A DNA stretch of 40,000 nucleotides from an uncultured Roseibium sp. (GTDB taxonomy: Bacteria > Pseudomonadota > Alphaproteobacteria > Rhizobiales > Stappiaceae), in the NCBI RefSeq assembly GCF_963675985.2, contig NZ_CAXXUC010000002.1:3054285-3094284 (forward strand), read 5' to 3'. The translations under genes and the position numbers were made by a program. A model generated the notes under the pieces. It was given only the letters and a program-made list of their open reading frames with translations, did not search any database and had not been told where the DNA came from. This document shows positions 11,876 to 29,971 of the stretch, in pieces. Within the stretch, counting starts at the first letter, position 1. Every line of letters starts with the position of its first letter.

Positions 11876-11950
11876 GCTGGCGTCCCCGTTTGCTTGTTGG
11901 CAGTTACGAAGACTCAAGCCTATGTGTAAGTATTTTCACTAGCGATAGGC

Positions 11951-14109: not shown

Positions 14110-14133
14110 ATAAGAACTTTCAAAGGGATTCAA

Positions 14134-15391: not shown

Positions 15392-16210
15392 ATGACGTTG
15401 GCATCCGACAAGGACGCGGAACAGACAGGCTATTCGGTCCCGCCGGTTCTGCGGGCAATCGCACTGCTGCGCTATATCGGAGCCGGCAACCGCTGCCGCA
15501 ACATCTCTTCGGCCTCCAAGGAACTGGGCATCAACCGCACCACGTTGATCCGCCTCATTCATACGCTGGAAGACGAGCGCATGATCGAGGAGATCGACGA
15601 AGGCGCCGGCTACCGGCTCGGAACCGGGTTGATCGCGCTGGCTTCCGAGGCCATCGCCGACCGGGACGTCGTCCAGGTCGCCCGGCCGATCCTTGCCGAC
15701 CTGGCAGCCGAACTCAACCTGTCGGCACATCTGGGCATTCTCGACGGGCTCGAGATCGTCTACCTGGCCCGGGAAACGCCGAACTCCTATCTGGTCAGCA
15801 ACGTGCGCGTGGGCACCCGTTTACCGGCGCATGCGACCACCATCGGACGCATTCTGCTGTCCGAGCTCGCGCCCGAGGCGTTGCACAAGCTTTATGACCA
15901 CGTGACGCTCGATGCCTATACGGACAAGACCAGAACCTCCCTGGAGGAACTGGAAGCGCAACTCGCCGAGGACCGCAAAGGCAGTATCGCCTGGAGTGTC
16001 GCCAACTTCGAGCCCGGGATCGGTTCCTGCGCAGTCGCCGTTTACGACGATCGCGGCCGTGCGGTCGGCGGCATTAACGTGACCGGGCAGGACAGCGTGT
16101 TCACGCCTGGAACTTACGAGGCGAATGTGATCGAACGCGCCATAAAGTCCGCCGCGAACCGGATTTCCGAGGGGCTCGGCCACACCTCGCGCACCGCTCG
16201 CAGAGCCTAA
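15392..16210 (+). CDS. IclR family transcriptional regulator
   Basis: 272 aa. wHTH (ISSASKELGINRTTLIRLIHTLEDERM). AGGGGGG ribosome-binding site before the ATG. Confidence 0.9.
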   Translation: MTLASDKDAEQTGYSVPPVLRAIALLRYIGAGNRCRNISSASKELGINRTTLIRLIHTLEDERMIEEIDEGAGYRLGTGLIALASEAIADRDVVQVARPILADLAAELNLSAHLGILDGLEIVYLARETPNSYLVSNVRVGTRLPAHATTIGRILLSELAPEALHKLYDHVTLDAYTDKTRTSLEELEAQLAEDRKGSIAWSVANFEPGIGSCAVAVYDDRGRAVGGINVTGQDSVFTPGTYEANVIERAIKSAANRISEGLGHTSRTARRA

Positions 16211-16222
16211 TTTCAGAAATAA

Positions 16223-16822
16223 TCAGTCGTAGGTATAACCGAAGGACAGGCCGAACCGGTCCGCCGTCAGCGGTCGGTTGCCGGTCAGGGCCCGGCGGAG
16301 CCACAAGCGACCGTGGATCTGGGTGTCGGTGAAATCGGCGTTTTCCGGAAGCCGGACACCATCAAACCAAAGCCCACCCAACCACTCGGCGCCGGAGAAA
16401 TCCGCCTGTTTGCGTAAGTTCGCGCCTTCCAGCGAAAAGTTGCCATAGGCGACGACGGCTGAAAAATCCGCGTTGTCCTCAAAAACGGCACCATTGAAGT
16501 TGCCGATGCCGCGGAATTCACACCCGGCAAAGGACACTGTGCGGGAGAAGGTTACCTCTTCGAACCGCGCGTCGTTGCGAAACGAAGCGCCCGCGAAGGA
16601 AACCTCGCCGCCGAAGACCGATCCGCCGAACCAGGACAGGCCCTGGAACACCGCATCGCGCGCATCGATGCCGTCGGGAAACCGCGCATTCCGGAAATCG
16701 ACGCCAGCCAACTCAAGGCCGGCGAGATCAAGCCTGCCTTCGCAGTCGACCCCGGATAGATCGATGCGCTCGCCGTGATGCCACGGCGTCGACAGGCGGT
16801 CGCGGATTTCCCCCGCCAACAT
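16223..16822 (-). CDS. pentapeptide-repeat protein
   Basis: Tandem A(D/N)LxX-like pentapeptides run through most of the protein (e.g. GASFRNDARFEEVTFSRTVSFAGCEFRGIGNFNGAVFEDNADFS). Start placed at the ATG 16822-16820, which overlaps the flavodoxin stop as TAATG. Confidence 0.85.
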   Translation of the reverse strand: MLAGEIRDRLSTPWHHGERIDLSGVDCEGRLDLAGLELAGVDFRNARFPDGIDARDAVFQGLSWFGGSVFGGEVSFAGASFRNDARFEEVTFSRTVSFAGCEFRGIGNFNGAVFEDNADFSAVVAYGNFSLEGANLRKQADFSGAEWLGGLWFDGVRLPENADFTDTQIHGRLWLRRALTGNRPLTADRFGLSFGYTYD

Positions 16823-17289
16823 TACGCGGCCTCTGAGTTCTGTTTTTCTGCGAGAGCGACCATTTCCTCCGCCCAAGGCAGAGCCAGATCATCCGCCATG
16901 TCGGCGCCGGACGCATCATGGGTCAGCCGCTCGCCAAGCTGGGTCGCGCCGTGTTTGGTGAGCAGATCGGCAATATGCTTGCTGCCGTGGTTGAAGGTCT
17001 CGTCATATTCGGAATCGCCGAGACCGAAGACGGAGAAACAGACGCCGGAGAGATCCGCGTCGGACTTGGCCATGGCTTCCTCGAAGGGTTTCGCCGAGGC
17101 AGGCAGTTCGCCGTCGCCGTAGGTCGAACAGACAACCAGGTAGAACCCGCCTGCCTCGAAGTCGTCCGGCGCGAAATCGGACAGGTTGACGGCTTCGGCG
17201 TCGTGGTCGCCTTCCAGGCTGGAGACGATGTCCTCCGCCAGCATCTCGGCATTCCCGGTTTCGGTACCGTAGAGAACAGTGATCTTCAT
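16822..17289 (-). CDS. flavodoxin
   Basis: 155 aa. N-terminal FMN phosphate-binding signature KITVLYGTETGNAEMLAEDI. ATGA overlap with the upstream reductase gene. Confidence 0.9.
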   Translation of the reverse strand: MKITVLYGTETGNAEMLAEDIVSSLEGDHDAEAVNLSDFAPDDFEAGGFYLVVCSTYGDGELPASAKPFEEAMAKSDADLSGVCFSVFGLGDSEYDETFNHGSKHIADLLTKHGATQLGERLTHDASGADMADDLALPWAEEMVALAEKQNSEAA

Positions 17290-18542
17290 CCGTTGATCTC
17301 CTCAGATTTTTGCAGGGCCAAGGCCAGCATGTCCTGCCGGCAGGCGATCTTCCGGCGGGTCCTGTCCGCCGGCAGGTCGGCCGTTTCCGCCTCATCGATG
17401 CGCTTCCAGCCGGCGTAATCGACCATATTTTCGCGGCCAACAATCAGACTATCCCGACCGCCTTTTCCGGTATCCGTACCGGCGGCGTCAAGATCCGCCA
17501 ATATACGGGTGGCGAGCGCCTGAGCGTCGGCGCGGTTTTCAGGGATCGTGCCTCGCGGGCCGCGGCGGAACCAGCCGGTCGCATAGAGCCCCGGAGCGAG
17601 CGCGCCGGCCTCCACGTCTTCTGCGGCGGCGACCAGATCGTCGCGCCCCAGAGGGCCGGCAGCGGCAAATCCGACGGCTGTGATGAGACTGTCGCAGGGG
17701 CGTTCGACTGTATCGCCGCTTGCATTCCGGAAGCGGACACCGGTCACCTTGCCGCCTTCACCGGTAATCTCCGCCGGTGTCAGGCCGAAGCGGAAGGTCA
17801 GACGGCGCGGACCGGTCCCATGGCCGTCAACAGTGGCCAAGGCGTCCAGCTTCTTCTGACCGTCGCCGCTCTGAGCCGTTCCCATTTCCTCGACGCGAAT
17901 GGTCACGCCGGAAAGCTTGGAAAGTTCCTTGATCATCACCGGATCGAACTTGGCGGCTTCGGCCACAGAGCGACCGACGATATCGATCGTCTCGATATCG
18001 TTGGCGGCAAGCCAGGCGCTCGGTCCGGCTCCGAAATCGGATCCGGCCAGTTCCTCGGGCGTTTTGCCGAGGATGCGCAACAGGTCGATGGCAACATTGC
18101 CGTTGCCCATGATGACGACCTTTTTGCCGAGCGTTGGCAGGGTTTCAGCATCTGGATGCTCGTAAAGGGCGCGGGTCAGATCACCGGCGCGGATCACGCC
18201 GTCCAGATCCTCACCCGGAATACCAAGCTGCCTGTCGCCCGGAAGACCGGCTGCCAACACGACGACATCGTAGCAAGCCCGTAGGTCGTCCAGGGACACA
18301 TCGTCGCCGATGGAAAGGTTGCCGATGAAGGTTGCGCCCATGCGTTCGAACACCCGCTCGAACTGGCGCGTGATCCCCTTGGTGCCCTGGTGATCGGCGG
18401 CGACGCCGTAGCGCACCAGACCGTAAGGCACCGGCAGACGGTCGATCAGGTCAACCTTGAGTTCCGAATTGGCCTTGAGCAGGGCCTGCGCCAGGAAGCA
18501 CCCGGATGGCCCGGCTCCGATGATGGCGACGGATGCACTCAT
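17286..18542 (-). CDS. FAD/NAD(P)H oxidoreductase, adrenodoxin-reductase / FprA-like
   Basis: 418 aa. Two dinucleotide folds: AIIGAGPSGCF and VVIMGNGNVAIDLLRIL. ATGA overlap with the aldehyde dehydrogenase gene. Confidence 0.8.
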   Translation of the reverse strand: MSASVAIIGAGPSGCFLAQALLKANSELKVDLIDRLPVPYGLVRYGVAADHQGTKGITRQFERVFERMGATFIGNLSIGDDVSLDDLRACYDVVVLAAGLPGDRQLGIPGEDLDGVIRAGDLTRALYEHPDAETLPTLGKKVVIMGNGNVAIDLLRILGKTPEELAGSDFGAGPSAWLAANDIETIDIVGRSVAEAAKFDPVMIKELSKLSGVTIRVEEMGTAQSGDGQKKLDALATVDGHGTGPRRLTFRFGLTPAEITGEGGKVTGVRFRNASGDTVERPCDSLITAVGFAAAGPLGRDDLVAAAEDVEAGALAPGLYATGWFRRGPRGTIPENRADAQALATRILADLDAAGTDTGKGGRDSLIVGRENMVDYAGWKRIDEAETADLPADRTRRKIACRQDMLALALQKSEEING

Positions 18543-20035
18543 GCGGCGCCCTCCATGGCCGGCAGGGCCCAGGGATGCGGTTTACCGGAGAGATCGGTAT
18601 AGATCGACTTCTGCGCCATATAGGCGCGCATGCCTTCCCTGCCCTTCTCCCGGCCGATACCGCTGTCCTTTTCGCCGCCGAACGGGGTCGAGATGGAGAA
18701 TTGCTTGTAGGTGTTGACCCAGACCGTGCCGGTGCTGATCGCCCGGCCCACGCGCCAGGCCTTCGGGAAATCCTTTGTCCAGAGCCCCAGCGCAAGACCG
18801 TAGCTGTTGTCGTTGGACTGGGCGATGACGTCCTCTTCGCTGTCGAAGGGCAGCACCGCCAGAACCGGGCCGAACACCTCTTCGCGGCACAAGCGCGCGG
18901 TGTTGGGCAGGCCCGCGATGATCGTCGGCAGGTAATAGGCGCCCTTGGCGTAATCCGCGCCGTCCGGGGCCATTCCGCCGCAGAGGATCTCGCCGCCATC
19001 GGCGCGGGCGGCCTCCACGTGTTCGATGACGCTCTCACGATGATCGAAGTGGATCAGCGGCGCCACCTGGGTATCGGCCTCGAACGGATTGCCGACCTTG
19101 AGGCGCTTGGTGACCTCCACCAGTCGGGACACGAACCGGTCATAGATCGGCCGTTCCACGAACAGGCGCGCACCGGCGATGCAGCTCTGGCCGGTGGAGG
19201 AAAAGATTCCGAACAGGACACCTGCGATGGCCTGGTCGATATCGGCATCGGCAAAGACGATGGTCGGCGATTTGCCCCCCAGTTCGAGGGAAACCGGCAT
19301 CAGCTTTTCCGCCGCCTGACGGGCGAGCTGGCGGCCGGTGGTCGTCCCGCCGGTGAAGCTGACCCGCGCGATATCGGGATGGTCGACCAGCAGGTTGCCG
19401 ATCTCGCGGCCCGCCCCCGGCAGTACGGAGAACAGGCCTTTCGGCAGGCCTGCCGCTTCCACGATCCGCGCCAGTTCCAGGCTGACCAGCGGCGACCAGG
19501 AGGCCGGCTTGAGCAGCACCGCGTTGCCGGCGGCAAGGGCCGGCGCCACCTTCTGGGCATCCGAGGCGATCGGCGAATTCCACGGCGTGATCGCACCAAC
19601 GAGCCCGAGCGGCTCGTAGACCGACAGGGTCATTGCATCGCCGCGCTGAACGGTCAGCGCCTCGTCGGAGGTTTCCAGGACCGCGCCGAAATAGCGGAAG
19701 GTTCCCGCCGCCGACATCGCCAGCGCCCTGGTTTCCCTTAAGGTTTTGCCGGTATCGCGGGTCTGGATATAGGAAATCCGGTCCGCATTCGCTTCGATGC
19801 CGTCGGCAATGGCATAGAGATATTTCGCCCGCTCATGGGCCTTCAGATTACGCCAGGCGGGATCGGCCTGTGCTGCGCGGGCGCGCTCGATGGCGCGCAA
19901 GCCGTCGTCTTGCGACGCTCCGCGCAACACCCGGTTGACTGAACCGTCAGCGGGGAAGATCGAGGTGATTTCCGGGCCCGTGCCCACTTCCCACTCGCCT
20001 GCGACGAAAAGCTTGCCTTCAGGAAGGTCGATCAT
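18539..20035 (-). CDS. NAD(P)-dependent aldehyde dehydrogenase
   Basis: 498 aa. Catalytic Glu region LELGGKSP. Catalytic Cys region SSTGQSCIAGARLFV. Confidence 0.95.
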   Translation of the reverse strand: MIDLPEGKLFVAGEWEVGTGPEITSIFPADGSVNRVLRGASQDDGLRAIERARAAQADPAWRNLKAHERAKYLYAIADGIEANADRISYIQTRDTGKTLRETRALAMSAAGTFRYFGAVLETSDEALTVQRGDAMTLSVYEPLGLVGAITPWNSPIASDAQKVAPALAAGNAVLLKPASWSPLVSLELARIVEAAGLPKGLFSVLPGAGREIGNLLVDHPDIARVSFTGGTTTGRQLARQAAEKLMPVSLELGGKSPTIVFADADIDQAIAGVLFGIFSSTGQSCIAGARLFVERPIYDRFVSRLVEVTKRLKVGNPFEADTQVAPLIHFDHRESVIEHVEAARADGGEILCGGMAPDGADYAKGAYYLPTIIAGLPNTARLCREEVFGPVLAVLPFDSEEDVIAQSNDNSYGLALGLWTKDFPKAWRVGRAISTGTVWVNTYKQFSISTPFGGEKDSGIGREKGREGMRAYMAQKSIYTDLSGKPHPWALPAMEGAA

Positions 20036-20045
20036 CCGGGTCTCC

Positions 20046-20870
20046 TTAAATCGCGACTGGAGCGACGCGGTTCCGCAACTCGCGCAGAACGCTGTAAACG
20101 GTCGTCACGGACGTCTTGATATTGCCCGGCGACGGCAGGTTCTCGATGCGGATCGACGTGCGTGCGACGCCTGAAACCGCAGTGAATTCATGGGTGTTGC
20201 CGGACGCGGCCGGATCGGCGATCAGCTCGACCTTCGTGTCGTCGAAGCCGAGACCGGCCAGCGCGATGGTGGCCGCCACGTTGGCGTTCTTCGGGTATTG
20301 CGCGGCGGCATCTCGGGCCGTGCCGGTAAAGAACACGGTTGCTTCCTTGAGACCGTCGAGATCGACCGCGGTTTCAGCGGGCGTCCCGGCCCAGGCCGCA
20401 GGCGGCTTGCACCCCTGATAGGTGACCGACGTCAGTCCCGCCGGGCGCAAGGCGGCCAGCAGATCGATCCCGCCGACCGCACCAGCCGGCAGCACGATCC
20501 GGGCACCGCCTTCCTCGGCCGCCGCGCGAAGCTCCGCTTCCAGCTCCCGGTGCGCAAAGGCTCCGATCGAGACGAGCACCACATCAACACCCGCTTTCAG
20601 GATCGTCGGCACATGGCTGACGACGGCCTGATGGCCGGCACATTCAACGACAAAGTCGGGCTTGGCCGCCAGCAGCTCTTCGGCGCTGGAGACAGCAGCG
20701 AAGCTGCATCCCAGGCCTCCATGAGAGGCTTCAAGATCCTTGCCCAATTCGTCCGTTTTTCCCGGCAGACCGAGAACCGTGAGTGCTTCCAGCCTGATTT
20801 CCGGGGTCTCCGCAATCAGTCGCAGCAGCGTTCCGGCGATATTGCCGTATCCGATCAGTCCGAGGCGCAT
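20046..20870 (-). CDS. aspartate dehydrogenase-like (NadX/DUF108 family) amino acid dehydrogenase
   Basis: 274 aa. N-terminal Rossmann motif MRLGLIGYGNIAG. Size and layout are typical of the family. Confidence 0.7.
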   Translation of the reverse strand: MRLGLIGYGNIAGTLLRLIAETPEIRLEALTVLGLPGKTDELGKDLEASHGGLGCSFAAVSSAEELLAAKPDFVVECAGHQAVVSHVPTILKAGVDVVLVSIGAFAHRELEAELRAAAEEGGARIVLPAGAVGGIDLLAALRPAGLTSVTYQGCKPPAAWAGTPAETAVDLDGLKEATVFFTGTARDAAAQYPKNANVAATIALAGLGFDDTKVELIADPAASGNTHEFTAVSGVARTSIRIENLPSPGNIKTSVTTVYSVLRELRNRVAPVAI

Positions 20871-20873
20871 GGT

Positions 20874-22547
20874 TCAGGTCCTGTTCCCCGCGGCACCGGC
20901 GGGCGGACCGGAAAAGGCCTGGGCGAAGGGACCGATGGCGCACATGTCGACTTCGATCACCTTGGGCCCGTCGACGGAAACGGCTTCCTCGAAGGCGTCC
21001 GCAAATTCGTCCACCGAGCCGACAACCCGGTGCGGCATGCCGATGGAAGCGCAGAAGGTTGCAAAGTCCGGGGTCGACAGCGCCGAATAATGCCGGCGGG
21101 AGTCATACTGCGCATCCTGGATATTCTGGATGACGCCGTAGGCCTTGTCGTTCATCAGCACGTAGACCAGACCGGCCTTCTCTTCGACGGCCGTGATCAT
21201 CTCGGCAATGCCGAGCATGGTGCCGCCGTCGCCGAGCAGGGTCACCGCCTTGGCCTCGGGCGAGGCGATAGCCGCGCCGATGCCCATCGCCACACCCTGG
21301 CCGATACCGCCGCCAAGGGCGTGAACGCCGTGCCGGGGTTCGGCGATCCGCACATAGCGGTTGCCGAAGGTCGAGTTGGAGATGGTGACGTCCCGGACCC
21401 AGGGATGCCTGCCGCCGGAGACCCGCACGGCCAGTTCGTCCGCGATCACCCGGTAGGGACCGAGAACATCGCGCATGCGGCCTTCAGCCGTTGCCCGCGC
21501 CGCTGCGATATCAAAGGCCTGCTCCGGATCGACATCGAGCTTTTCCGGCAACAGTTCGAGGATCCGGCCCAGTGTGTCGGCGGCATCGCCATGGGCGAAG
21601 ATCTCGACAGGGTAGTTGCGGCCGCCCTGGGTGGCATCCGCATCGATCTGAACCAGGGGCGACGGCAGAACCATCGCGTTGTTATGGGTCTCGTTGCCAC
21701 GCAGCCGCGATCCGACGACGATCATCATGTCGGACTTACGGTAAAGCTCCTGGGCCTCGGGTGTCATGTTGAAGGCGCCGAGATTGCCCGGCTGCTCTTC
21801 GGAGACGATGGCACGGCCGTTGGTGCTGGTAACGATGCCGATGCCGCGGCGGTGGAGTTCGCTTGCTTCCTTGGAGGCGCCGCGGGCACCGCCGCCAAGC
21901 CACAGCAGCGGCCGCTTGGCGGACTTGAGCCTCGCGGCGATTTCCTCGACGACCGCATCAGGCGCACGCGGTGTCATCGGCACCGGCGCATGGATCGCTC
22001 CGGTCTCACAGGCCTGGGTGCGCTGAACGTCGACCGGGATCTCCAGGCTGACCGGGCCCGTCGGAGCGCTCAGGGCGGAGGAGACGGCGGCGGTCAGGGT
22101 GCCGACGGCATTGCGCGCGTCCCACATGCGGAAATAGGCCTTGGAGACACCTTTGAGCATGTCCGGCTGGCGCGGAACGTCGTGAATGGCGGCGCGGTCC
22201 CGGTCGGCGAATTCGACATCGACCTGCGTGGTGATGTGCAGGACCCGCGACCCGGCTGTCAGGGCTTCGGCCTGCGCACCGGCCGCGTTGCCGGCGGCCG
22301 TGCCTGTTGAGGTGATGACCACGCCGAGGCTCTCGGAGACCCGGGCATAGGCATCGGCCATGTTCATGGCGCCGGCCTCGCCACGCGCCGGCACGAAGCG
22401 GATCCGCTCCTGGCGGGCGATCGCGTCCAGGATCGGCATATTGTGGATCGAGATGACCCCGAACACGGTGGTCACACCGATCTCGGCGAGGTAGCGGGCG
22501 ATGAAGTCCCCGACCGTCTCAGTGATCGTGATCTTTTCCATTTTCAT
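20874..22547 (-). CDS. thiamine diphosphate-dependent enzyme (acetolactate synthase / 2-oxoacid decarboxylase superfamily)
   Basis: Start moved to the ATG at 22547 (MKMEKITITETVGDF) with a GAGGGAA ribosome-binding site. ThDP motif GDGGTMLG...VYVLMNDKAYG. Confidence 0.9.
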   Translation of the reverse strand: MKMEKITITETVGDFIARYLAEIGVTTVFGVISIHNMPILDAIARQERIRFVPARGEAGAMNMADAYARVSESLGVVITSTGTAAGNAAGAQAEALTAGSRVLHITTQVDVEFADRDRAAIHDVPRQPDMLKGVSKAYFRMWDARNAVGTLTAAVSSALSAPTGPVSLEIPVDVQRTQACETGAIHAPVPMTPRAPDAVVEEIAARLKSAKRPLLWLGGGARGASKEASELHRRGIGIVTSTNGRAIVSEEQPGNLGAFNMTPEAQELYRKSDMMIVVGSRLRGNETHNNAMVLPSPLVQIDADATQGGRNYPVEIFAHGDAADTLGRILELLPEKLDVDPEQAFDIAAARATAEGRMRDVLGPYRVIADELAVRVSGGRHPWVRDVTISNSTFGNRYVRIAEPRHGVHALGGGIGQGVAMGIGAAIASPEAKAVTLLGDGGTMLGIAEMITAVEEKAGLVYVLMNDKAYGVIQNIQDAQYDSRRHYSALSTPDFATFCASIGMPHRVVGSVDEFADAFEEAVSVDGPKVIEVDMCAIGPFAQAFSGPPAGAAGNRT

Positions 22548-22557
22548 TTTTGTTCCC

Positions 22558-23346
22558 TCAAATATGCCGGGAGACGCCGCCCGAGACCTCGATCTGTGCG
22601 CCGGTGATGTAGCTGGCGGCAGGCGAGCCCAGGAAGCAGATCGCCGCGGCGGCCTCCTCCGGCTGCCCCAGCCGTCCCAGCGGGATGCGTTTTTTCGAAG
22701 CGAGATCGGCGTACCAGTCTTCGCGGCTCTGGCTCTTGTCCTCACGGGCTTCGAACCGGCGCTGCCACTGGCCGGAATCGACCAGGCCGATCAGGATGGA
22801 ATTGACCCGCACCTTCGGCGCCAGTTCCACGCTCAGCGACTTGGCCAGGTTCTGCACGCCGGCCCGGGCGGAAGACGTGCACACCATGTGCGCTTCCGGC
22901 TGGTAGGCGAGCAGCGAATTGACCACGACGATGGCGCCGTTCGCTTCCGCCAGCATCGCCTTGAAGGCGCGCACCGGGCGGACCTGGCTGAACACCTTCA
23001 ATTCGTACTCGGCACGCCAGTCGTCATCCGACGTTTCGGCGAAGGTCGATACCCTGCCCTGGCCGGCGTTGTTGACCAGCAGATCGCACCGGCCGGACCG
23101 GTCCTGAACATCGACGGCGAAGGCCTGGACATCGGCCTCGTCGAGCACGTTCAGCGCCTTGGCAAACACCCGACCCTCACCGAATTCGGCGGTCAGTTCC
23201 GAAGCGACCTTCTGCAGTCGCTCCTCATTGCGGGCGCAGATCGCCACGTTCGCACCGCTTGCCAGAAGCAGGCGCGTCGTCGCCAATCCGATGCCTGAGG
23301 ATCCGCCGGTCACCACAGCGACCCGGCCGTCATAGCCGTAATGCAT
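22558..23346 (-). CDS. short-chain dehydrogenase/reductase family protein with a non-canonical active site
   Basis: 262 aa. Contains TGGSSGIG and NNAG. At the spacing expected for YxxxK after the catalytic Ser (VVNS), the sequence reads TSSAR. Confidence 0.85.
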   Translation of the reverse strand: MHYGYDGRVAVVTGGSSGIGLATTRLLLASGANVAICARNEERLQKVASELTAEFGEGRVFAKALNVLDEADVQAFAVDVQDRSGRCDLLVNNAGQGRVSTFAETSDDDWRAEYELKVFSQVRPVRAFKAMLAEANGAIVVVNSLLAYQPEAHMVCTSSARAGVQNLAKSLSVELAPKVRVNSILIGLVDSGQWQRRFEAREDKSQSREDWYADLASKKRIPLGRLGQPEEAAAAICFLGSPAASYITGAQIEVSGGVSRHI

Positions 23347-24260
23347 CAGTTCTTCCTCAGTTCCGGGAAGCCGGGATCGGGACGGCCCTGCATGACCGCG
23401 CGCTGCGCCGGGGTCGGCGGCCCGGCAGTCATCCAGCGGTCCATGGCTTCCGGATCGTTGCGCGACCAGACCTTGGCCTCGTGGGTCGCCTCGTCGATCT
23501 GTTGCAGTTCGGAGGTGAACTCGATCACGAAACCGGACGGCGAAACGAAATAGGCGAAGGGGTTGTTGCCCGGCCCGTGCCGGCCCGGTCCCCAGGTCGG
23601 AACATGACCCTTCTGCTTCATCCGGCCGATGCCGCGCATGAACTCGTCCAGCGTCGGCATTTCGAAGGCCACGTGATTGACGCTCGGGTAATGGGCGCGC
23701 ACCAGGGCAATCGAATGGTGATCCGTGTTGCAGCGGAGAAAGACCATCTGGTCGGCGGAATAGTCGGACACCCGGAAGCCGAGCACGTTGCAGTACCAGT
23801 CCTGAACGCCTTCCATGTCCGGTGTATTGAGCACCACATGACTGACCTTGCGCGGCATCGCCCAGTCGTCCTTCGGCTCCAGCTCCTTGGCCTCGGTGCG
23901 GAAACGCAGGCGGCGGTTGTCCGGGTCGAGCACCTCGAAACCGTAGCCGCCGCAGAAATCGGGGAACGGCGCCGGATCGCTAACAACAGCCGCGCCCGCT
24001 GCCTTCACCTGGGCATGCAGGGCGTCCATCGAGGCCCGGTCGGGCATGGAAAAGTGGACATATTCGATGCCGTAGACCGGTGCGTCCTTGAGACCGTAGA
24101 GAAACGGCTCGGTGCCCGTGCCACGCAGAAGAACTTCGTCGTTCCCCTTATGCGACAGGTCGAGGCCCCACATGTCTTCGTAAAACGGCAGCGTCTCGGT
24201 AATACCGGGTCCGCGCATCATGATGCCGCGCAGGGCGCCGACGCGTATCGGATCAGACAT
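23346..24260 (-). CDS. type I two-domain extradiol ring-cleavage dioxygenase (VOC superfamily)
   Basis: 304 aa. Candidate Fe ligands in SHVVLN, NHVAFE and IEFTSE. Its stop overlaps the next start as TGATG. Confidence 0.85.
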   Translation of the reverse strand: MSDPIRVGALRGIMMRGPGITETLPFYEDMWGLDLSHKGNDEVLLRGTGTEPFLYGLKDAPVYGIEYVHFSMPDRASMDALHAQVKAAGAAVVSDPAPFPDFCGGYGFEVLDPDNRRLRFRTEAKELEPKDDWAMPRKVSHVVLNTPDMEGVQDWYCNVLGFRVSDYSADQMVFLRCNTDHHSIALVRAHYPSVNHVAFEMPTLDEFMRGIGRMKQKGHVPTWGPGRHGPGNNPFAYFVSPSGFVIEFTSELQQIDEATHEAKVWSRNDPEAMDRWMTAGPPTPAQRAVMQGRPDPGFPELRKN

Positions 24261-24284
24261 TTTCCAGTCTCCTGTTCCGGCCCG

Positions 24285-25100
24285 TCATTGTGCGGGCGAC
24301 GTCATTGAAGCCAGCGCCAGGGCAAAAGCCTCAGGCGCCTGCTGATAAAGGGCGTGTCCCGCCGACGGCACTTCCGTGAGCGCACCGCGTGCGGACTGTG
24401 GGATGGCAGCATGGGTCTTGCGGGCGGCCTCGGGCGGCGTCACCACGTCTTCCGCACCGACAATCACGTCTGTCGGCACGGTCAGCCGGGCAGCATCGTC
24501 AAGCAGACGGCCGGACGCCAGCATGCGCACCGCCATGTCGTAGCCGGGGCTGGAGACGCGGGACATCGCATCGAAAACGCGCGCCACCAGATCCGGATTT
24601 GTCTCCGGTTCGAACACCAGCCGGGACGCACGGGCTTCGGCGAATTTTTCAGCCCCAAGGGCTGCCAGATCATCCAGCCGCTTCTGTGCCGCAGCACTCA
24701 AGGCGGACCCCGGCGTCACGCCGTGACCGAGCGCGGGCGATGCCAGTAGCAGATGCGCCACGCGGTCCGGGTAACCGGCCGCAAAGGCGGCCCCGATCAG
24801 GGTGCCGAGCGAATGGCCAACAAGCAGCACCCGATCCAGTCCGAGACGGTCCAGAAGGCCTTTCAGGGCCTCGGCATAGTCGGCGGCCTGAGGCCAATCC
24901 TTTGCCAGAGGCTCCGATCCGCCATAGCCTGGCGCGTTCCAGACAATCACCCGGAAGGTCGGGGCGATGTGATCGAGAAAGGGCGCGAACGACATCGCAT
25001 TGCTGCCGATGCCGTGAAGCAGCACCAGAACCGGACCTTCGCCCTGCGCTGGCCGTTCCAGATATTCGATACCGCCGGAAATGTGGGTCTGGACAGTCAT
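24285..25100 (-). CDS. alpha/beta hydrolase (meta-cleavage-product hydrolase-like)
   Basis: 271 aa. HG oxyanion motif VLVLLHGIG. Nucleophile elbow GHSLG. Located between the SDR and extradiol dioxygenase genes. Confidence 0.8.
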   Translation of the reverse strand: MTVQTHISGGIEYLERPAQGEGPVLVLLHGIGSNAMSFAPFLDHIAPTFRVIVWNAPGYGGSEPLAKDWPQAADYAEALKGLLDRLGLDRVLLVGHSLGTLIGAAFAAGYPDRVAHLLLASPALGHGVTPGSALSAAAQKRLDDLAALGAEKFAEARASRLVFEPETNPDLVARVFDAMSRVSSPGYDMAVRMLASGRLLDDAARLTVPTDVIVGAEDVVTPPEAARKTHAAIPQSARGALTEVPSAGHALYQQAPEAFALALASMTSPAQ

Positions 25101-25107
25101 GGGCGGC

Positions 25108-25851
25108 TCACTTGAAAACGAAACCGTTGTTGACCGGCATCACCTGGCCGGTCAGGGTCAGGGCGCCTTCGCTGACGAGGAAGGCGATCACGTCGGTGAT
25201 CTCGGAAGCTTCCTGCGGACCGGGAACCGCCCTGCCCTCGGCGTAAAGCCGATGGCGAGCTTCGGGCACGTAGTCGGTGGATTCCGTGGTCAGAATGCCC
25301 GGAGCGACAGCCGTGACGCCGATCCGTTCCGGCCCGAGCTCGCGCGCCAGCGAACGGGTCATGGACATGACCGCGCCCTTGCTGGCCACATAGGACATCA
25401 GCCGGGGCGCACCCCAGAGCGCGGTATCCGACGCGACGTTGACGATGCGGCCGGAGCCGGAGGCCGACAGCATCGGCCGGCAGGCCTTGGTCATCAGCCA
25501 GGTGCCGCGCACGTTGACGCGCATGACCCGATCCCAGCTGTCGATCTCGATCTCGTCGAAGGGAATACCGCCGATGCCGGTCGCGATCGCGCCGTTGTTG
25601 ACGAGACCGTGGAGCTTGCCGCCCGTCTCTGAAGCGACGGCCTCACCAAGCGCCTGAATGGATGCCGGCTCGCCGAGATCGACGGGAAAAAAGCGAACCG
25701 CCTCACCAAGCTCCTGTGCCACGGCACGGCCTTCCTCCTCGGCGATATCCGCCAGGATCAGCCGTGCACCATGGCCGGCAAGACTGCGGGCGATTTCGCG
25801 CCCGAGGCCACGCGCCGCGCCGGTGACGAGAATGGTCCGCTCTTTCAGCAT
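25108..25851 (-). CDS. classical SDR (dihydrodiol dehydrogenase-like)
   Basis: 247 aa. Contains TGAARGLG and the catalytic YVASK. Its start overlaps the Rieske gene stop as TAATG. Confidence 0.85.
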   Translation of the reverse strand: MLKERTILVTGAARGLGREIARSLAGHGARLILADIAEEEGRAVAQELGEAVRFFPVDLGEPASIQALGEAVASETGGKLHGLVNNGAIATGIGGIPFDEIEIDSWDRVMRVNVRGTWLMTKACRPMLSASGSGRIVNVASDTALWGAPRLMSYVASKGAVMSMTRSLARELGPERIGVTAVAPGILTTESTDYVPEARHRLYAEGRAVPGPQEASEITDVIAFLVSEGALTLTGQVMPVNNGFVFK

Positions 25852-26915
25852 TATTCGGCTGCCTCACTGGCGGTCAGTTCGGCCTCGATCTGGCTCTTGG
25901 CCGCACGGGTCAGCATCTGGCGGATACGGGAGACGCCGAGGTCGTGCTGATAGAGCATCTCGCGCTTGCGGGCATCGTCCGGCATGCCTTCCAGCATGAC
26001 CCGGTCCTGCTCCAGCACGTGCCAGTGGCGCTCCTCGAGCATGGCACGATAGAGGAAGCGCCAGCTTTCACGCGCCAGGCCGCTGACCTTGCGCAAGCGC
26101 CAGAAGAACACCTTGCAGGTGGTGGCATCGATCGGGGAAACGAAGCCTACGATACGCATGTTGCCGCCCGGGCCGGCCGCCGGCGGATAGGGAATGTCCA
26201 GGAAGCAGAACATGGTGCCCGGATGGATCTCGAATTCCGTCCAGTCGAAGTTGTCGCCCGCCTGCTCGACCCGGCTGACACGGAAACCGTCATCGGTCTT
26301 GTCCAGCTTCATCAGGTCCTGCTTGGCGCCATAAGCCAGCGTGAAGCTTTCCGCATGCAGATAGCAGCCGTGCATGGGGTCCGCGAGATTGTCGATGGCG
26401 TAGCGGTAGTTGGTGCTCCAGACGGAGGTGCACAGGAAGCCGGTCCATTCGTCGCTGGTGAACTCATGCGGCATCGCCAGTTCCGGCGGCTCAGGCTGCT
26501 CGACGCTCGGCATGTAGACGAAGACGGCGTCGTGGGTTTCCGTGGTGTGGAAGGACTTCAGCGCCTTGCGGCCTTCGAGTGCGCACTCCGGCATGGCAGG
26601 CACCCGCTTGACCACACCTTCTCCATCGACGATGACGCCGTGGTAGCGGCAGCCGATATCGCCGTCATGGATCTCACCGTAGGAGAGCGGCGCGCCGCGG
26701 TGGGGGCAGAAATCCTCGATGCACTGGATCTTACCTTCCTTGTCGCGCCACAGGACCAGCTTCTGGCCAAGCAGCTTGGCGCCGTAAGGCCGGGAATCCT
26801 TGACTTCGACGGATTTGGCAACCGGGTACCACTGCCCCAGGAGCCCCTGGTTCACGCGTTCCTCGATCAGCGCCTTCTTATCGATATCGGCCATGTCTCT
26901 CCACTCCTTGTCCAA
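25851..26915 (-). CDS. Rieske non-haem iron oxygenase, alpha-only type (VanA/KshA/phthalate-family-like)
   Basis: 354 aa. Rieske motif CPHRGAPLSYGEIHDGDIGCRYH (CxH-x16-CxxH). Mononuclear iron motif DPMHGCYLH. No beta-subunit gene nearby. Confidence 0.9.
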   Translation of the reverse strand: MDKEWRDMADIDKKALIEERVNQGLLGQWYPVAKSVEVKDSRPYGAKLLGQKLVLWRDKEGKIQCIEDFCPHRGAPLSYGEIHDGDIGCRYHGVIVDGEGVVKRVPAMPECALEGRKALKSFHTTETHDAVFVYMPSVEQPEPPELAMPHEFTSDEWTGFLCTSVWSTNYRYAIDNLADPMHGCYLHAESFTLAYGAKQDLMKLDKTDDGFRVSRVEQAGDNFDWTEFEIHPGTMFCFLDIPYPPAAGPGGNMRIVGFVSPIDATTCKVFFWRLRKVSGLARESWRFLYRAMLEERHWHVLEQDRVMLEGMPDDARKREMLYQHDLGVSRIRQMLTRAAKSQIEAELTASEAAE

Positions 26916-27055
26916 GGCCAGCGGTCCAATATCCCGCCCCGGCTCTCATCTAAGCTTCGGTGTCTTTTTTCTCGCAGGTGTCCCTTCCCGGCCGGTCATG
27001 CCGGGGTGTTCGGTTCTGCATTTCCCTCTGGACGGATCGGCCGTTGCCGGTCCGT

Positions 27056-27904
27056 TTAGCTCTGCGCTTTCGGCAGGTAATGGAGCACACGCTCTTCGAC
27101 CCGCGCGATCGCGGTATAAAGAACGATCCCGATGACCGTGAGCAACACGATGGCGTTGAACACCATGGCCGCATTCGCCTGACCGCCACCATAGGAGATC
27201 AGGAAGCCGAGCCCGACGTTGCCGCCGACCAGTTCACCGACGGTCACACCAATCACGGCGAGGGTCGAAGCGATGCGCAGACCCGCAAGCAGGTTCGGCA
27301 TGGTGGACGGCATCTCGACCTTGAAAAAGACACCCAGGCGGGACAGGTTGTAGGCTCGCGCCAGGTTGACCAGATCCCGGTCCACCGTCTTCATCGCCTG
27401 CAGCACATTGACCAGCACCGGAAAGAACACGATCAGGACGGTCACCAGCAGCTTGGGCATGGCGTTATAGCCGAACCACATGATGAACAGCGGCGCGAAG
27501 GCAACTTTCGGCGCGATCTGCAGGGCCAGGATGTAAGGTGACAGCACCTTTTCCCAGAAGCTCGACATGCCCAGGACATAGCCGATCACTGCGCCGAGCA
27601 GACTGCCCAGGGCAAAGCCCAGAACGGTATAGACCGCAGTGGAGATCGTGTTGCCGAGCAGGTTTTCCTGCTGCCACATGCGGACCATTTCCACCGCGCA
27701 GTCGGACACGGTCGGAATGATATACTTCGGCACACCGAGCGCGGGCGGCAGGAACTCCCAGCACAGGAGCAGTACGGCCAGGACCGCAAGGCTCATAAAC
27801 AGGGCGTTTTTCGACGAAGTCATCGGTTTCTTCCGTCTCTTGTGATCCTCACGGGTCACGGCGACTGGCGCCGCGACCTCGATTGAAGGACTTGCGTCCG
27901 TCAT
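27056..27904 (-). CDS. ABC transporter permease, NitT/TauT type
   Basis: 282-aa membrane protein. ATGA overlap with the SBP gene. Confidence 0.85.
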   Translation of the reverse strand: MTDASPSIEVAAPVAVTREDHKRRKKPMTSSKNALFMSLAVLAVLLLCWEFLPPALGVPKYIIPTVSDCAVEMVRMWQQENLLGNTISTAVYTVLGFALGSLLGAVIGYVLGMSSFWEKVLSPYILALQIAPKVAFAPLFIMWFGYNAMPKLLVTVLIVFFPVLVNVLQAMKTVDRDLVNLARAYNLSRLGVFFKVEMPSTMPNLLAGLRIASTLAVIGVTVGELVGGNVGLGFLISYGGGQANAAMVFNAIVLLTVIGIVLYTAIARVEERVLHYLPKAQS

Positions 27905-28875
27905 TGCGGGACGAATTCGTTCGTGTAGAGATCTTCAACCGGAACGGCCGTCTTGACGATACCGTTGTCGATATAGAACTTCTGCACCTTGGCCATACGC
28001 TCCGGATCGAATGCGCCCAGCGGCTGGCCTTCGGCGGCCGGATAGACCTTTTCCACGTAGGCACGCATGATCGCTTCGATCGCCTTCTCCTTGCCGGTAT
28101 GCTGCGGCACGAAGGAGACGTATTCCTTGGCGGCCTTTGCCGGATCGGCTTCGATATCCTTGAGGGCGCGGATCACGCCGGCAACGATGCCCTTCACGAC
28201 TTCCGGGCGCTCGGCGATGGTTTTGTCGGAGGCCAGGATCGCCTGGGCCATGGCCGGGAACATGGTGTCCACGGAGACCTGATCCATCGGGACACCGGCC
28301 GCTTCGACAGCCGCGATCCACTCCGGAACGCCGGACATGCCCTGCAGGGTACCGGCGATGGTGAGCTGGATGATGCCGCCCGGGCCGACGCCCTGGATGT
28401 TGACGTCATTCTTGGTCAGGCCGACGGAGGCCATCGCGCCGAGCAGATTGTAGTAGGTCGTGTCCTGGAAGCCGAGAACGCCGATCGCCTTGCCCTTGAA
28501 GTCGGCCGGGCCGGTGATGCCGGAATCCTTGCGCCATGCAAGCTGGGTCAGACCGCGGCCGCCCAGCAGGGCCACGCCGCGGATCTTCAGGCCGTTGGCG
28601 CGCACAATGATCGGCGTGTCGCCGATGCCGCCGCCGATGTCGGCATTGCCGACGGCAACCTGGGTGGCGACATCCGCGCCGCCCTTGCCGACCATGAAGG
28701 TGACGTCCAGACCTTCATCGGCAAAATAGCCCTTGTGCTTTGCAAGCTGGAACGGGGCAAAGGCCGGCAGGAAGTCCGGTGCCGGAAAAAGGTAGCTCAC
28801 CTTTTCGGCCGCCTGGGCGGCTCCTGCGGAAACCGCCATCACGGCGGCCATCATGCTAATTGCGAAACGCTTCAT
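27901..28875 (-). CDS. ABC transporter substrate-binding protein (NMT1/THI5-like)
   Basis: 324 aa. Sec signal peptide MKRFAISMMAAVMAVSAGAAQA. Confidence 0.8.
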   Translation of the reverse strand: MKRFAISMMAAVMAVSAGAAQAAEKVSYLFPAPDFLPAFAPFQLAKHKGYFADEGLDVTFMVGKGGADVATQVAVGNADIGGGIGDTPIIVRANGLKIRGVALLGGRGLTQLAWRKDSGITGPADFKGKAIGVLGFQDTTYYNLLGAMASVGLTKNDVNIQGVGPGGIIQLTIAGTLQGMSGVPEWIAAVEAAGVPMDQVSVDTMFPAMAQAILASDKTIAERPEVVKGIVAGVIRALKDIEADPAKAAKEYVSFVPQHTGKEKAIEAIMRAYVEKVYPAAEGQPLGAFDPERMAKVQKFYIDNGIVKTAVPVEDLYTNEFVPQ

Positions 28876-28908
28876 TACAGAGATCCCCTGCTGGATATCA
28901 AAAATGAT

Positions 28909-29679
28909 CTAGATGGTCTTTTCTTCTAGTTTGAGCAGCTCGAAGAGCTGCGCGGCGTAATTATTGACTTCCGGCAACTTGCGCCGCTGCAGTGGCCGTT
29001 CACGGTGTGGCAGATCGACCTTGATATCCGCGATCACGCGTCCCGGACGCTCCGACAGGACCAGGATCCGGTCTGACATCAGGACGGCTTCGGCAAGGTC
29101 GTGGGTAATCAGAAGAGTGGTCTTGCGGCTCTCGAAGATCGTTTCCGCAAAACTGTTCTGCAGCAGCATCTTGGTCTGCGCATCGAGGGCGGAAAACGGT
29201 TCGTCGAGCAGAATGATCTCGGGATCGATGGCAAGGGTGCGCGCAAGAGCTGCGCGTTGGCGCATGCCGCCGGAAAGCTGATAGGGATAATGGCCCTCGA
29301 AGCCGTCCAGGTGACAGTGCTTGAGTTCCTTCATGGCGGTGGCACGGCGCTCCTCGCGGGCCACGCCTCGGGCCTCCAGTCCGAACTCGATATTTTGCAC
29401 GATGCTGCGCCAGGGAAGCAGCAGATCCTTCTGCAGCATGAAACCGACATGCTGGTTCGGACCGGTCACCGTCTCGCCGCTGACCAGAACGTCACCGACG
29501 GTCGGCTGATACAAACCGGCGGTCATGCTCAAGATGGTGCTCTTGCCGCAACCGGACGGACCGACGACAGAAACGAATTCCCCCTCATCGACGCAAAAGC
29601 TGACGTCATCGACAGCCGTCATCCTGTCGCCGGAGCGGGACTCGAATTCCTTGGTGACGCCGCGAAATTCAAGCGCCAT
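28909..29679 (-). CDS. ABC transporter ATP-binding protein, NitT/TauT type
   Basis: Walker A GPSGCGKST, signature LSGGMRQRAALARTL, Walker B ILLDEPFSALD. Confidence 0.95.
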   Translation of the reverse strand: MALEFRGVTKEFESRSGDRMTAVDDVSFCVDEGEFVSVVGPSGCGKSTILSMTAGLYQPTVGDVLVSGETVTGPNQHVGFMLQKDLLLPWRSIVQNIEFGLEARGVAREERRATAMKELKHCHLDGFEGHYPYQLSGGMRQRAALARTLAIDPEIILLDEPFSALDAQTKMLLQNSFAETIFESRKTTLLITHDLAEAVLMSDRILVLSERPGRVIADIKVDLPHRERPLQRRKLPEVNNYAAQLFELLKLEEKTI

Positions 29680-29971
29680 AGCCGTTTTCCAGGTAAGCGG
29701 CGTCGAAATCCACGTTGATGGCGGTCAGCTCTTCGGACAGAAGCGCTTCGGTCCAGTCGGTCTTGCCGGAGATCGGCGCGACGACCTTGCGGTCCGTCAA
29801 GGCAGCGGCAACAGCGGCGTAGTCGCCGGCACCGGCCCCATAGATTTCCATCAGCGCTTCGGCGAGTTTTTGCTCAACCTCGGTCAATTCCCGTCCCCGG
29901 GACTGATGGGCAAGCGCCGGACGGCTGGTGTCGAACGCTTTTTGCGATAGGCGGTCTTTGAACAGATCCAT
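29669..29971 (-). CDS. small conserved-looking protein of unknown function; first gene of the long operon
   Basis: 100-aa soluble acidic protein. It overlaps the ATPase start by 11 nt. No motif I can assign with confidence. Confidence 0.6.
   Translation of the reverse strand: MDLFKDRLSQKAFDTSRPALAHQSRGRELTEVEQKLAEALMEIYGAGAGDYAAVAAALTDRKVVAPISGKTDWTEALLSEELTAINVDFDAAYLENGYGA

Follow-up and report, generated by a model that had tools for sequence, protein, structure and literature searches.

A candidate orphan operon for aromatic acid catabolism in an uncultured Roseibium species

Layout and predicted control of the operon

We analyzed a 40,000-nucleotide stretch of DNA from an uncultured Roseibium sp. 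(contig NZ_CAXXUC010000002.1; hereafter the window), in which fifteen minus-strand open reading frames (ORFs) run from position 29971 to position 16223. The original prediction, made from the letters of the window, described them as an orphan uptake and ring-cleavage operon without the canonical lower pathway. All fifteen ORFs are present, this description is supported, and every protein family that had been proposed was confirmed with Pfam and NCBIfam. The extent of the unit is only partly as described: the predicted 15-gene operon stands, but the unit is bigger and also includes genes for a FAD-dependent hydroxylase, a cupin and two IclR-family regulators. The parts of the operon, in order of transcription, are:

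29669..29971, minus: 100-amino-acid (aa) 'recombinase-like helix-turn-helix (HTH)' protein, PF20552, first cistron (Pfam; helical in an AlphaFold2 model)
28909..29679, minus: ATP-binding cassette (ABC) transporter ATPase of the taurine/sulfonate/nitrate type (Pfam, NCBIfam)
27901..28875, minus: periplasmic substrate-binding protein of the NMT1/THI5 family (Pfam, NCBIfam)
27056..27904, minus: ABC transporter permease (Pfam, NCBIfam)
26895..27055, minus: the sole long intergenic gap, occupied by a small cupin gene in eight alphaproteobacterial relatives
25851..26894, minus: alpha-only Rieske non-heme iron oxygenase with Rieske and VanA_C domains (PF00355, PF19112)
25108..25851, minus: classical short-chain dehydrogenase/reductase (SDR1) with YVASK, found with the Rieske gene in every variant (Pfam, NCBIfam)
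24285..25100, minus: alpha/beta-fold hydrolase with GHSLG (Pfam, NCBIfam)
23346..24260, minus: two-domain extradiol ring-cleavage dioxygenase of the VOC family with an intact metal triad (Pfam Glyoxalase)
22558..23346, minus: atypical SDR (SDR2), NF005468, 401 bits against a cut-off of 266 (NCBIfam)
20874..22547, minus: thiamine diphosphate (ThDP) enzyme, NF005470, 761.6 bits against a cut-off of 495 (PF02776, PF00205, PF02775)
20046..20870, minus: aspartate dehydrogenase (AspDH) family protein with Asp_DH_C and NAD_binding_3 domains (also NCBIfam)
18539..20035, minus: NAD(P)-dependent aldehyde dehydrogenase (ALDH), nearest families BADH, HpaE and hydroxymuconic semialdehyde dehydrogenase
17286..18542, minus: FAD-containing NAD(P)H oxidoreductase, adrenodoxin-reductase/FprA-like (domain search, NCBIfam)
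16822..17289, minus: short-chain flavodoxin, MioC-like (domain search, NCBIfam)
16223..16822, minus: pentapeptide-repeat protein, last cistron (domain search), encoded directly after Rieske-SDR1 in a split variant of the locus

Coding density is 98.4% over the 13,749 bp of the operon. With the best start for each gene, successive junctions measure -11, +33, -4, +161, -1, +7, +24, -1, +10, +3, +10, -4, -4 and -1 nt. The ATGA overlaps reported at 27901-27904, 18539-18542 and 17286-17289 are exact on reverse-complementing, as are the stop/start overlaps (TAATG at 25849-25853, TGATG at 23344-23348 and TAATG at 16820-16824), the 11-nt overlap between the HTH and ATPase genes (29669-29679) and the 33-nt gap. 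The ThDP gene starts at ATG 22547 and the pentapeptide gene at ATG 16822. The Rieske gene most likely starts at ATG 26894, which is preceded by GGAGTGGAGAG and which we favor over TTG 26915. With this start the long gap ahead of the Rieske gene, correctly singled out as the only exception to the close spacing, is therefore 161 nt (26895-27055) rather than 140 nt.

The genes and candidate control sites around the operon that appear to belong with it are:

30018..30047, minus: promoter-like TTGACT-18 nt-AATCAT 5' of the first gene; the TTGAC of the -35 element recurs at the same place in relatives
29987..30013, minus: predicted three-part operator ATTGATCAATGTGTTCAAAATTGAACA, immediately downstream of the -10 hexamer
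15392..16210, plus: IclR-family regulator 1, transcribed towards the operon, whose last gene ends 12 nt away
15297..15323, minus: weaker operator copy (13 of 17 positions) ahead of the IclR gene
14134..15276, plus: FAD-dependent aromatic hydroxylase, NicC-like, true start ATG 14134 (NCBIfam, structure-database match)
14092..14118, plus: second operator copy, overlapping a promoter-like TTGACG-17-GATAAT ahead of the hydroxylase gene
12943..13890, plus: bicupin with a conserved N-terminal HxH...E motif, 67-86% identical among relatives
12850..12871, plus: a distinct palindrome, TGCGTTTCAC-CA-GTAAAACGCA, in the region that separates the second IclR and bicupin genes
12029..12811, minus: second IclR-family regulator (IclR2), divergent from the bicupin gene

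An alignment of the upstream regions of related loci gave the operator consensus TGAACA-N3-TGTTC-N5-TGAACA. With a simple scoring scheme, 61 of 74 related loci have it in the 220 nt ahead of the HTH gene, against 0.32 sites in shuffled windows. In our window, copies occur only ahead of the first gene, the hydroxylase gene and the regulator gene. The exact palindrome TGTTCAAAATTGAACA was rejected as the operator: it is found in only 4 of 75 loci, and the broader three-part consensus is the conserved element. That the operator follows the -10 hexamer so closely points to repression and not to activation. The palindrome between the bicupin and IclR2 genes differs from this operator, and therefore a system of two regulators with two operators is likely. 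Both regulators score best with TIGR02431 (147-155 against a cut-off of 285). The weak operator copy in the hydroxylase-IclR interval lies between the arms of a 12-nt inverted repeat, GAGAAGCTGATC...GATCAGCTTTTC (15290-15338), which may be a terminator of the hydroxylase gene or part of IclR autoregulation.

The sequence is consistent with one operon of fifteen genes: they are tightly spaced, follow a single promoter-like site and a single operator, and show no terminator excess. Between 15300 and 30600 we found 9 terminator-like hairpins where shuffled sequences predict 11.7, which is no enrichment. One such hairpin (30356-30338) follows the MMPL gene upstream of the operon. At the other end, the last operon gene and the convergent IclR gene stop 12 nt apart (16211-16222) with no terminator between them, so the 3' ends of the two transcripts probably overlap. 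Relatives of the Rieske protein were found in 425 stretches of species genomes, and we compared 80 of these loci. All fifteen genes are colinear in 43 of the 80 alphaproteobacterial loci, and thus the arrangement is not due to chance. This homology and neighborhood search, proposed earlier as a check, recovered the same fifteen genes repeatedly and no characterized pathway.

It is unlikely, though conceivable for any substrate, that there are two transcripts, one for the transporter genes (29971-27056) and another for the enzyme genes (26894-16223), the latter initiated within the 161-nt gap. This is the one long gap, its position is plastic, with a cupin gene inserted in eight relatives, and the enzymes of Beta- and Gammaproteobacteria occur without this importer; an internal promoter there could exist, which would count against a single operon. 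However, the gap (26895-27055) contains no promoter-like site, terminator-like site or operator copy, and the absence of a minus-strand terminator agrees with what had been reported. Moreover, the first gene, the hydroxylase gene and the regulator gene are the only ones preceded by the conserved operator, and the gap is short in most relatives. The cupin gene that fills it in the eight relatives encodes about 180 aa and lies between the permease and Rieske genes. In the Roseibium lineage the fused bicupin encoded elsewhere may have replaced this small cupin; a search for a remnant of the cupin gene in the gap gave no significant similarity.

Predicted enzymes, transporter and accessory proteins

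The Rieske protein carries CPH-x17-CRYH at residue 63 and DPMHGCYLH at residue 172, and groups with the alpha-only oxygenases (phthalate/VanA family); no ORF for a beta subunit is present in the operon. Its likeness to any characterized member is limited to the Rieske domain. More than 1,500 homologues were found at E < 0.001, and the best 120, at least 73% identical, all bear generic names. An FMN-[2Fe-2S] reductase of the phthalate dioxygenase reductase (PDR)/VanB type is found neither in the window nor in the 80 alphaproteobacterial loci, which leaves the system outside class IA. The FprA-like reductase and flavodoxin are encoded in 50 of these loci, and the orthologous betaproteobacterial cassettes have a PDR/VanB reductase instead. 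Because the two kinds of redox partner are mutually exclusive, this distribution supports a role of the FprA-like reductase and flavodoxin in feeding the Rieske enzyme.

SDR1 is a probable dihydrodiol or alcohol dehydrogenase that partners the Rieske enzyme. Its best named NCBIfam family is pyridoxal 4-dehydrogenase, with a score below the cut-off. The VOC enzyme has the features of a type I extradiol dioxygenase: two VOC domains, a 2-His-1-Glu triad and catalytic His and Tyr residues. Aligned to structure 1f1r of homoprotocatechuate dioxygenase (HPCD), it shows vsHv, vnHvaf, viEf, dhHsial and faYfv at the iron-triad and catalytic His/Tyr positions, which we take to be His155, His214 and Glu267 (iron ligands), His200 and Tyr257 in HPCD numbering. 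Its nearest structure is 3b59, of unknown function.

The FAD hydroxylase is kept alongside the operon at 63-76% identity. Its closest solved relative is 6-hydroxynicotinate 3-monooxygenase NicC (269 bits), other decarboxylating hydroxylases are also among its nearest structures, and its NCBIfam score is under every curated cut-off. A match of the hydroxylase to tropone 2-monooxygenase prompted us to consider tropone/tropolone catabolism, for which no literature was found. Among the small cupins of beta- and gammaproteobacterial cassettes identity is 67-70%; compared with either half of the Roseibium bicupin it falls to about 31%.

Hydrolases of meta-cleavage products (MCP) such as BphD, MhpC and HsaD have G-N-S-M-G around the Ser of a Ser-Asp-His triad, and His-Trp after the catalytic His. 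The Roseibium alpha/beta hydrolase has GHSLG and GHALY at these places, as judged by eye. It scores 111-123 bits with PcaD-type lactonases in NCBIfam versus 55-69 bits with BphD/HsaD, matches HsaD/BphD structures in the PDB at 69 bits at most, and also resembles RutD and the AAMS hydrolase of the vitamin B6 pathway (3kxp). It thus looks more like a PcaD/RutD-type enzyme than an MCP hydrolase.

SDR2 lacks the classical Ser...Tyr-x3-Lys catalytic residues and has T-S-S-A-R in place of Y-x3-K. The same residues are found in the orthologues of Vibrio, Acinetobacter, Cupriavidus and a further alphaproteobacterial locus (L102). Since they are conserved in alpha-, beta- and gammaproteobacterial orthologues, SDR2 is, judging from these alignments, a functional lineage of SDRs without the Tyr and not a product of decay. 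The ThDP enzyme has all three TPP_enzyme domains (N, M and C), and the nearest named family is a 2-oxo-acid decarboxylase, which is its predicted activity. Both NF005468 and NF005470 are curated NCBIfam families that lack a functional name.

The predicted AspDH has both expected domains, scores above the cut-offs of NF009828 (263 against 177) and NF009827 (235.5 against 226), and carries a candidate catalytic His (GNTHEF) that aligns with the His of NIH in Thermotoga maritima TM1643 and of NIHEI in Archaeoglobus fulgidus. It is the only AspDH-family gene in the genome. Because a bona fide NadB is encoded elsewhere, the operon copy is not needed for NAD synthesis. Mesophilic bacterial AspDHs that have been assayed are specific for oxaloacetate and aspartate (PMC5554190). 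The human AspDH homologue reduces the ring-fission enamine 2-aminomuconate by means of a shifted His (bioRxiv 10.64898/2026.06.05.730449), and the shift of human ASPDH/AMR is not seen in the Roseibium protein. We infer that pathway nitrogen passes through an intermediate of the iminoaspartate/aspartate/oxaloacetate type.

The usual hydratase, aldolase and acylating dehydrogenase route had been reported missing from the operon, and this absence extends beyond the cluster. In the 100%-complete genome, the DmpG-type 4-hydroxy-2-oxovalerate aldolase (TIGR03217) has no match above the cut-off, and the DmpF-type acylating acetaldehyde dehydrogenase (TIGR03215) has no match whatever; the lack of a canonical lower pathway therefore holds genome-wide. 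The proposal that the atypical SDR, ThDP enzyme, AspDH and ALDH take its place is supported as well, and this block travels with the hydrolase and VOC genes as a portable unit.

The gene order oxygenase, SDR, hydrolase, extradiol dioxygenase does recall aromatic upper pathways, as had been pointed out, and parallels HcaE/HcaB/MhpC/MhpB, with the FAD hydroxylase in the role of MhpA. One could therefore imagine an amino-acid version of the Escherichia coli Hca/Mhp route, in which phenylalanine or m-tyrosine is converted to 2,3-dihydroxyphenylalanine by the Rieske enzyme and SDR1 or by the FAD hydroxylase, cleaved by the VOC enzyme and hydrolyzed to L-aspartate and 2-hydroxypentadienoate. The AspDH would deaminate the former, and SDR2, the ThDP enzyme and ALDH would turn the C5 unit into a C4 acid. 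By chemical reasoning, C-C hydrolysis of such a ring-fission product yields exactly aspartate, and since the canonical genes for hydroxypentadienoate are absent, a replacement is needed. We nevertheless find this route very improbable. The hydrolase lacks the MCP motif, and PcaD-type lactonases give it the higher score. No role is left for the cupin, which all versions of the cassette have, and carriers of the types described below are unusual for aromatic amino acids. In addition, the modular split of the cassette suggests two stages of ring opening.

The dedicated NMT1-type importer had suggested a polar substrate. This is supported, because orthologous cassettes exchange the ABC importer for tripartite ATP-independent periplasmic (TRAP), tripartite tricarboxylate transporter (TTT) or major facilitator superfamily (MFS) carriers. 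The PF20552 protein lies directly 5' of the Rieske gene in every beta- and gammaproteobacterial version (positions 1-155 of locus L109 and 5532-5852 of L110; also L124, L126 and L127). It has a conserved C-terminal NA-LDAAY-ENGYGA and no Cys, and its predicted structure (mean predicted local distance difference test, pLDDT, 78.6) gave no structural match with E < 1. Instead of binding DNA, this protein may serve the oxygenase as an accessory. The pentapeptide-repeat gene is directly 3' of Rieske-SDR1 in the split variant (11766-12302 of locus L064), and beta- and gammaproteobacterial cassettes have none.

Distribution and modular structure of the cassette

Besides the colinear arrangement, we observed a split variant in 12 loci. 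In this variant, genes for the bicupin, HTH protein, Rieske oxygenase, SDR1 and pentapeptide protein lie downstream of the IclR2 gene, and those for the hydroxylase, IclR regulator, ALDH and, in some loci, AspDH and ThDP enzyme are found elsewhere in the same locus. The three-part operator is located at the hydroxylase/IclR pair instead of the HTH gene, and the two gene groups are separated by genes for a sulfatase and a TRAP carrier. Two other genomes carry only hydrolase-VOC-SDR2-ThDP-AspDH-ALDH, together with the IclR and hydroxylase genes and, in one of them, an adjoining TRAP permease gene. A Vibrio nigripulchritudo plasmid has genes for a small cupin, hydrolase, VOC enzyme, SDR2, ThDP enzyme, AspDH, ALDH, IclR regulator and TRAP carrier.

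Further cassettes occur in Acinetobacter baumannii (NZ_CP043459.1), in the order HTH-Rieske-SDR-VOC-FAD enzyme-MFS-cupin-hydrolase-SDR-AspDH-ALDH-ThDP, and on a Cupriavidus pauculus plasmid (NZ_CP033971.1), where the enzymes are the same and come with a PDR/VanB reductase, an MFS carrier and TTT binding proteins. Four more Pseudomonadota genomes carry the enzyme set, and a cassette of this kind is probably also encoded in Pseudomonas aeruginosa (PA3498-PA3514, with PA3505 as the putative AspDH). Identities of the A. baumannii and C. pauculus orthologues to the Roseibium proteins are 47-48% for the Rieske protein, 48-49% for SDR1, 37-42% for the hydrolase, 53-58% for SDR2, 42-50% for the ThDP enzyme, 48-50% for AspDH and 55-58% for ALDH, and the HTH protein and a cupin are present too. 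The A. baumannii and C. pauculus cassettes differ from that of Roseibium: the carriers are of the MFS or TTT type, the cupin is small and not a bicupin, the pentapeptide protein is missing, and the VOC and FAD enzymes are more divergent; in Cupriavidus, the PDR/VanB reductase replaces the flavodoxin and FprA-like reductase.

In strain ATCC 17978, A1S_0956-0958 are annotated like the AspDH-ALDH-ThDP trio of the A. baumannii cassette, and they are up about 2.2-2.4-fold on mucin (PMC5757984). Literature retrieved by PA35xx/A1S_09xx locus tags or by enzyme combinations consists of expression lists, with no function given for the cassette. Among sampled Pseudomonadota, 14 of 401 genomes and 12 of 212 genera are positive for NF005470.

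From these arrangements, the cassette appears to consist of an upper module (HTH protein, Rieske oxygenase, SDR1, cupin) and a lower module (FAD hydroxylase, hydrolase, VOC enzyme, SDR2, ThDP enzyme, AspDH, ALDH), with transporters and reductases that seem to be interchangeable. The HTH, Rieske, SDR1 and pentapeptide genes go with the bicupin and IclR2 genes, and the hydrolase, VOC, SDR2, ThDP, AspDH and ALDH genes go with the hydroxylase and IclR genes. One locus (L101, contig C29 of genome G100, a genome of about 2.9 Mb) has the cassette without ALDH, reductase and flavodoxin genes within the region compared, and these three are therefore dispensable or supplied from elsewhere.

Next to the system lies a second importer that, unlike the bicupin and second IclR genes, is co-conserved in some relatives only:

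9283..11917, minus: second NMT1-type ABC importer (substrate-binding protein 10856-11917, ATPase 10053-10859, permease 9283-10056)

Genes for a CoxS/CoxL-type molybdenum hydroxylase, a TRAP transporter and a TauE/SafE sulfite exporter (8176-8988) adjoin the system at 2157-8988, and this set is not co-conserved in the alphaproteobacterial loci. A molybdenum hydroxylase also flanks the Cupriavidus cassette (19910-21626 of L110).

Sulfatase and TRAP DctM genes directly follow the Rieske module in loci L055, L057, L062-L066 and L080 (for example, 12293-15281 of L064). This hints that those bacteria meet the substrate in sulfated form. A pathway for an aromatic sulfonate or sulfate ester of the TsaMBCD/PsbAC type, in which the VanA-like Rieske enzyme oxidizes a methyl group or desulfonates and SDR1 and ALDH finish the side chain, is a further reading, and a very improbable one. 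NMT1-type importers carry sulfonates, and NMT1/SsuA-type binding proteins are encoded twice in the window. The TauE/SafE gene, the sulfatase gene that adjoins the Rieske module in nine split-variant loci, and the combination of Rieske, SDR and ALDH, which is the TsaM/TsaC/TsaD pattern, all count in its favor. However, the TauE gene is not co-conserved, the beta- and gammaproteobacterial cassettes have MFS, TTT or TRAP carriers and no sulfur-related gene, and the AspDH, ThDP enzyme and two dioxygenases would be left unexplained.

Candidate substrates and relation to known pathways

It is reasonably probable that the genes constitute one IclR-controlled regulon by which the cell takes up and completely degrades a polar, nitrogen-containing aromatic carboxylic acid that probably has two rings. 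The division into two modules points to an acid of two rings that releases its nitrogen as aspartate or oxaloacetate. In the pathway that we propose, the ABC importer would take up the acid, and the alpha-only Rieske oxygenase, with electrons delivered by the FprA-like reductase and flavodoxin, would dihydroxylate one ring. SDR1 would re-aromatize this ring to a diol, which the cupin or the VOC dioxygenase would open. The NicC-like hydroxylase would then prepare the remaining ring for opening by the other dioxygenase. The resulting carbon fragments could be trimmed by the hydrolase, by reduction with SDR2, by the ThDP 2-oxo-acid decarboxylase and by aldehyde oxidation with ALDH, and AspDH would act on the nitrogen-bearing fragment, of the iminoaspartate/aspartate/oxaloacetate type. 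Together, SDR2, the ThDP enzyme, AspDH, ALDH and the hydrolase would stand in for the missing hydratase/aldolase route.

As the best candidate for the substrate we tentatively propose kynurenate, because there appear to be two ring-opening stages, a hydroxylase of the hydroxypyridine type and an aspartate-type end point. In the classical kynurenate ('quinoline') pathway of pseudomonads, a double hydroxylation with NAD(P)H and O2 gives a dihydrodiol, which is acted on by a dehydrogenase and followed by extradiol cleavage; a later step is an NADH-dependent reduction. This biochemistry was reportedly established by the Hayaishi laboratory in 1961-63. The first three activities fit the Rieske enzyme (candidate EC 1.14.99.2), SDR1 (candidate EC 1.3.1.18) and a dioxygenase of the operon (candidate EC 1.13.11.10), and the later reduction could be the task of SDR2. 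Once the benzene ring is removed, N1-C2(COOH)-C3-C4 of kynurenate is the skeleton of aspartate, which fits the AspDH. The cassette could then be, though we would not press the point, the genetic basis of bacterial degradation of kynurenate, and perhaps xanthurenate, here in a version from a marine alphaproteobacterium whose importer is of the ABC type and whose Rieske oxygenase is fed by flavodoxin. The lower half of the cassette would be a route not described before that opens a hydroxylated picolinate ring and recovers the nitrogen as aspartate by a catabolic AspDH, with the ThDP decarboxylase, ALDH and Tyr-less SDR replacing hydratase and aldolase.

Several observations weigh against the pathway or against kynurenate as its substrate. 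The order of the steps and the division of labor between cupin and VOC enzyme are guesses, the predicted structure of the bicupin (pLDDT 92.5) has as its matches only generic bicupins, oxalate decarboxylase and quercetinase among them (TM-score 0.55-0.64), the hydrolase departs from the MCP motif, and the HTH and pentapeptide proteins have no place in the scheme. The old kynurenate scheme likewise has no counterpart for these two proteins, the ThDP enzyme or the cupin. Pseudomonads turn kynurenate into glutamate, alanine and organic acids (PMC11354673, a 2024 review), and aspartate is not among these reported products; decarboxylation of the 2-oxo side chain by the ThDP enzyme would in turn mean that no 2-oxoglutarate is formed. 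No tryptophan or kynurenine genes recur in the flanks of more than 80 loci, where only transporters, sulfatase and cupins do. Genes for tryptophan 2,3-dioxygenase (kynA) and kynureninase (kynU) are adjacent elsewhere in the genome (contig C2, 403089-405136), which indicates that the anthranilate branch of tryptophan catabolism is present. In the literature and searchable records we found no gene assignment for kynurenate degradation and no sequence for the three EC numbers, and among the best literature matches none joins kynurenate terms with a Rieske oxygenase.

The same architecture might serve another N-heteroaromatic or amino-aromatic acid: xanthurenate, quinaldate, a hydroxylated picolinate or quinoline carboxylate, or an aminobenzoate derivative. 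In that case the upper module would be one of several entries to a lower module for an acid of the hydroxypyridine or aminophenol type. This is possible but doubtful. The lower module does occur alone with the hydroxylase, in one locus with an adjoining TRAP permease, and in Vibrio with only a cupin. Moreover, NicC, to which the hydroxylase is closest, acts on a hydroxypyridine carboxylate; the hydrolase resembles RutD and the B6-pathway enzyme 3kxp; the best named family of SDR1, although below its cut-off, is pyridoxal 4-dehydrogenase; and a molybdenum hydroxylase with a TRAP set is found nearby in the window and beside the Cupriavidus cassette. However, no evidence favors any one of these compounds, and the molybdenum hydroxylase is not co-conserved in the alphaproteobacterial loci. 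To our knowledge, the nicotinate, picolinate and pyridoxine pathways (nic, pic and Mesorhizobium loti B6 genes) use other enzyme sets, which also counts against it. Riboflavin/lumichrome catabolism (PMC12746152) was considered and rejected, as its two-subunit ThDP enzyme LumK/L, four-component Rieske system, P450 and xanthine oxidase do not match.

About eleven proteins thus form an enzyme set that has stayed together across Alpha-, Beta- and Gammaproteobacteria, in hospital as well as marine bacteria, and for which we found in the literature neither a characterized pathway nor an assigned substrate; its NCBIfam names are generic. The set includes NF005468, NF005470 and a universal small partner protein of the Rieske oxygenase, and places the 'non-NadB' bacterial aspartate dehydrogenases in a physiological setting for the first time. 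If the assignment to kynurenate is true, three EC numbers that have been without sequences for 60 years would gain genes, and the microbial removal of a signaling metabolite derived from hosts or plankton could be traced in genomes. The conserved operator, the two regulators and the two binding proteins offer direct handles for ligand discovery.

Several known systems share parts with the Roseibium regulon. IclR regulators of the PcaU/PobR type use operators with three repeats, and the Roseibium operator likewise has two inverted half-sites and one direct half-site. Unlike those operators, it is placed just downstream of the -10 hexamer, and the TIGR02431 scores of the Roseibium regulators are below the cut-off. 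The alpha-only systems VanAB, TsaMB, IphABCD and PsbAC share the VanA_C catalytic domain, an IclR regulator and a dedicated acid transporter, but in Roseibium the redox partners are an FprA-like reductase and a flavodoxin, whereas the betaproteobacterial orthologues keep the PDR/VanB type. The nicotinate pathway has in NicC the nearest relative of the hydroxylase, but homologues of NicX, NicF and NicE are not in the cluster.

The E. coli Hca/Mhp route and the classical meta-cleavage pathways (Bph, Xyl, Dmp) have in common with the cassette a Rieske oxygenase, a dihydrodiol dehydrogenase, a VOC extradiol dioxygenase, an alpha/beta hydrolase and an entry by an MhpA-like FAD enzyme. In contrast to these pathways, Roseibium has no beta subunit, no aldolase or acylating dehydrogenase genome-wide, no hydratase route and a hydrolase that is not of the MCP type, and it has in addition a cupin, a ThDP enzyme, an AspDH and an atypical SDR. 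The feature is real and was rightly read as an orphan pathway; it is larger than the fifteen genes, far more widespread than could be told from the window, and a variant of aerobic aromatic catabolism.

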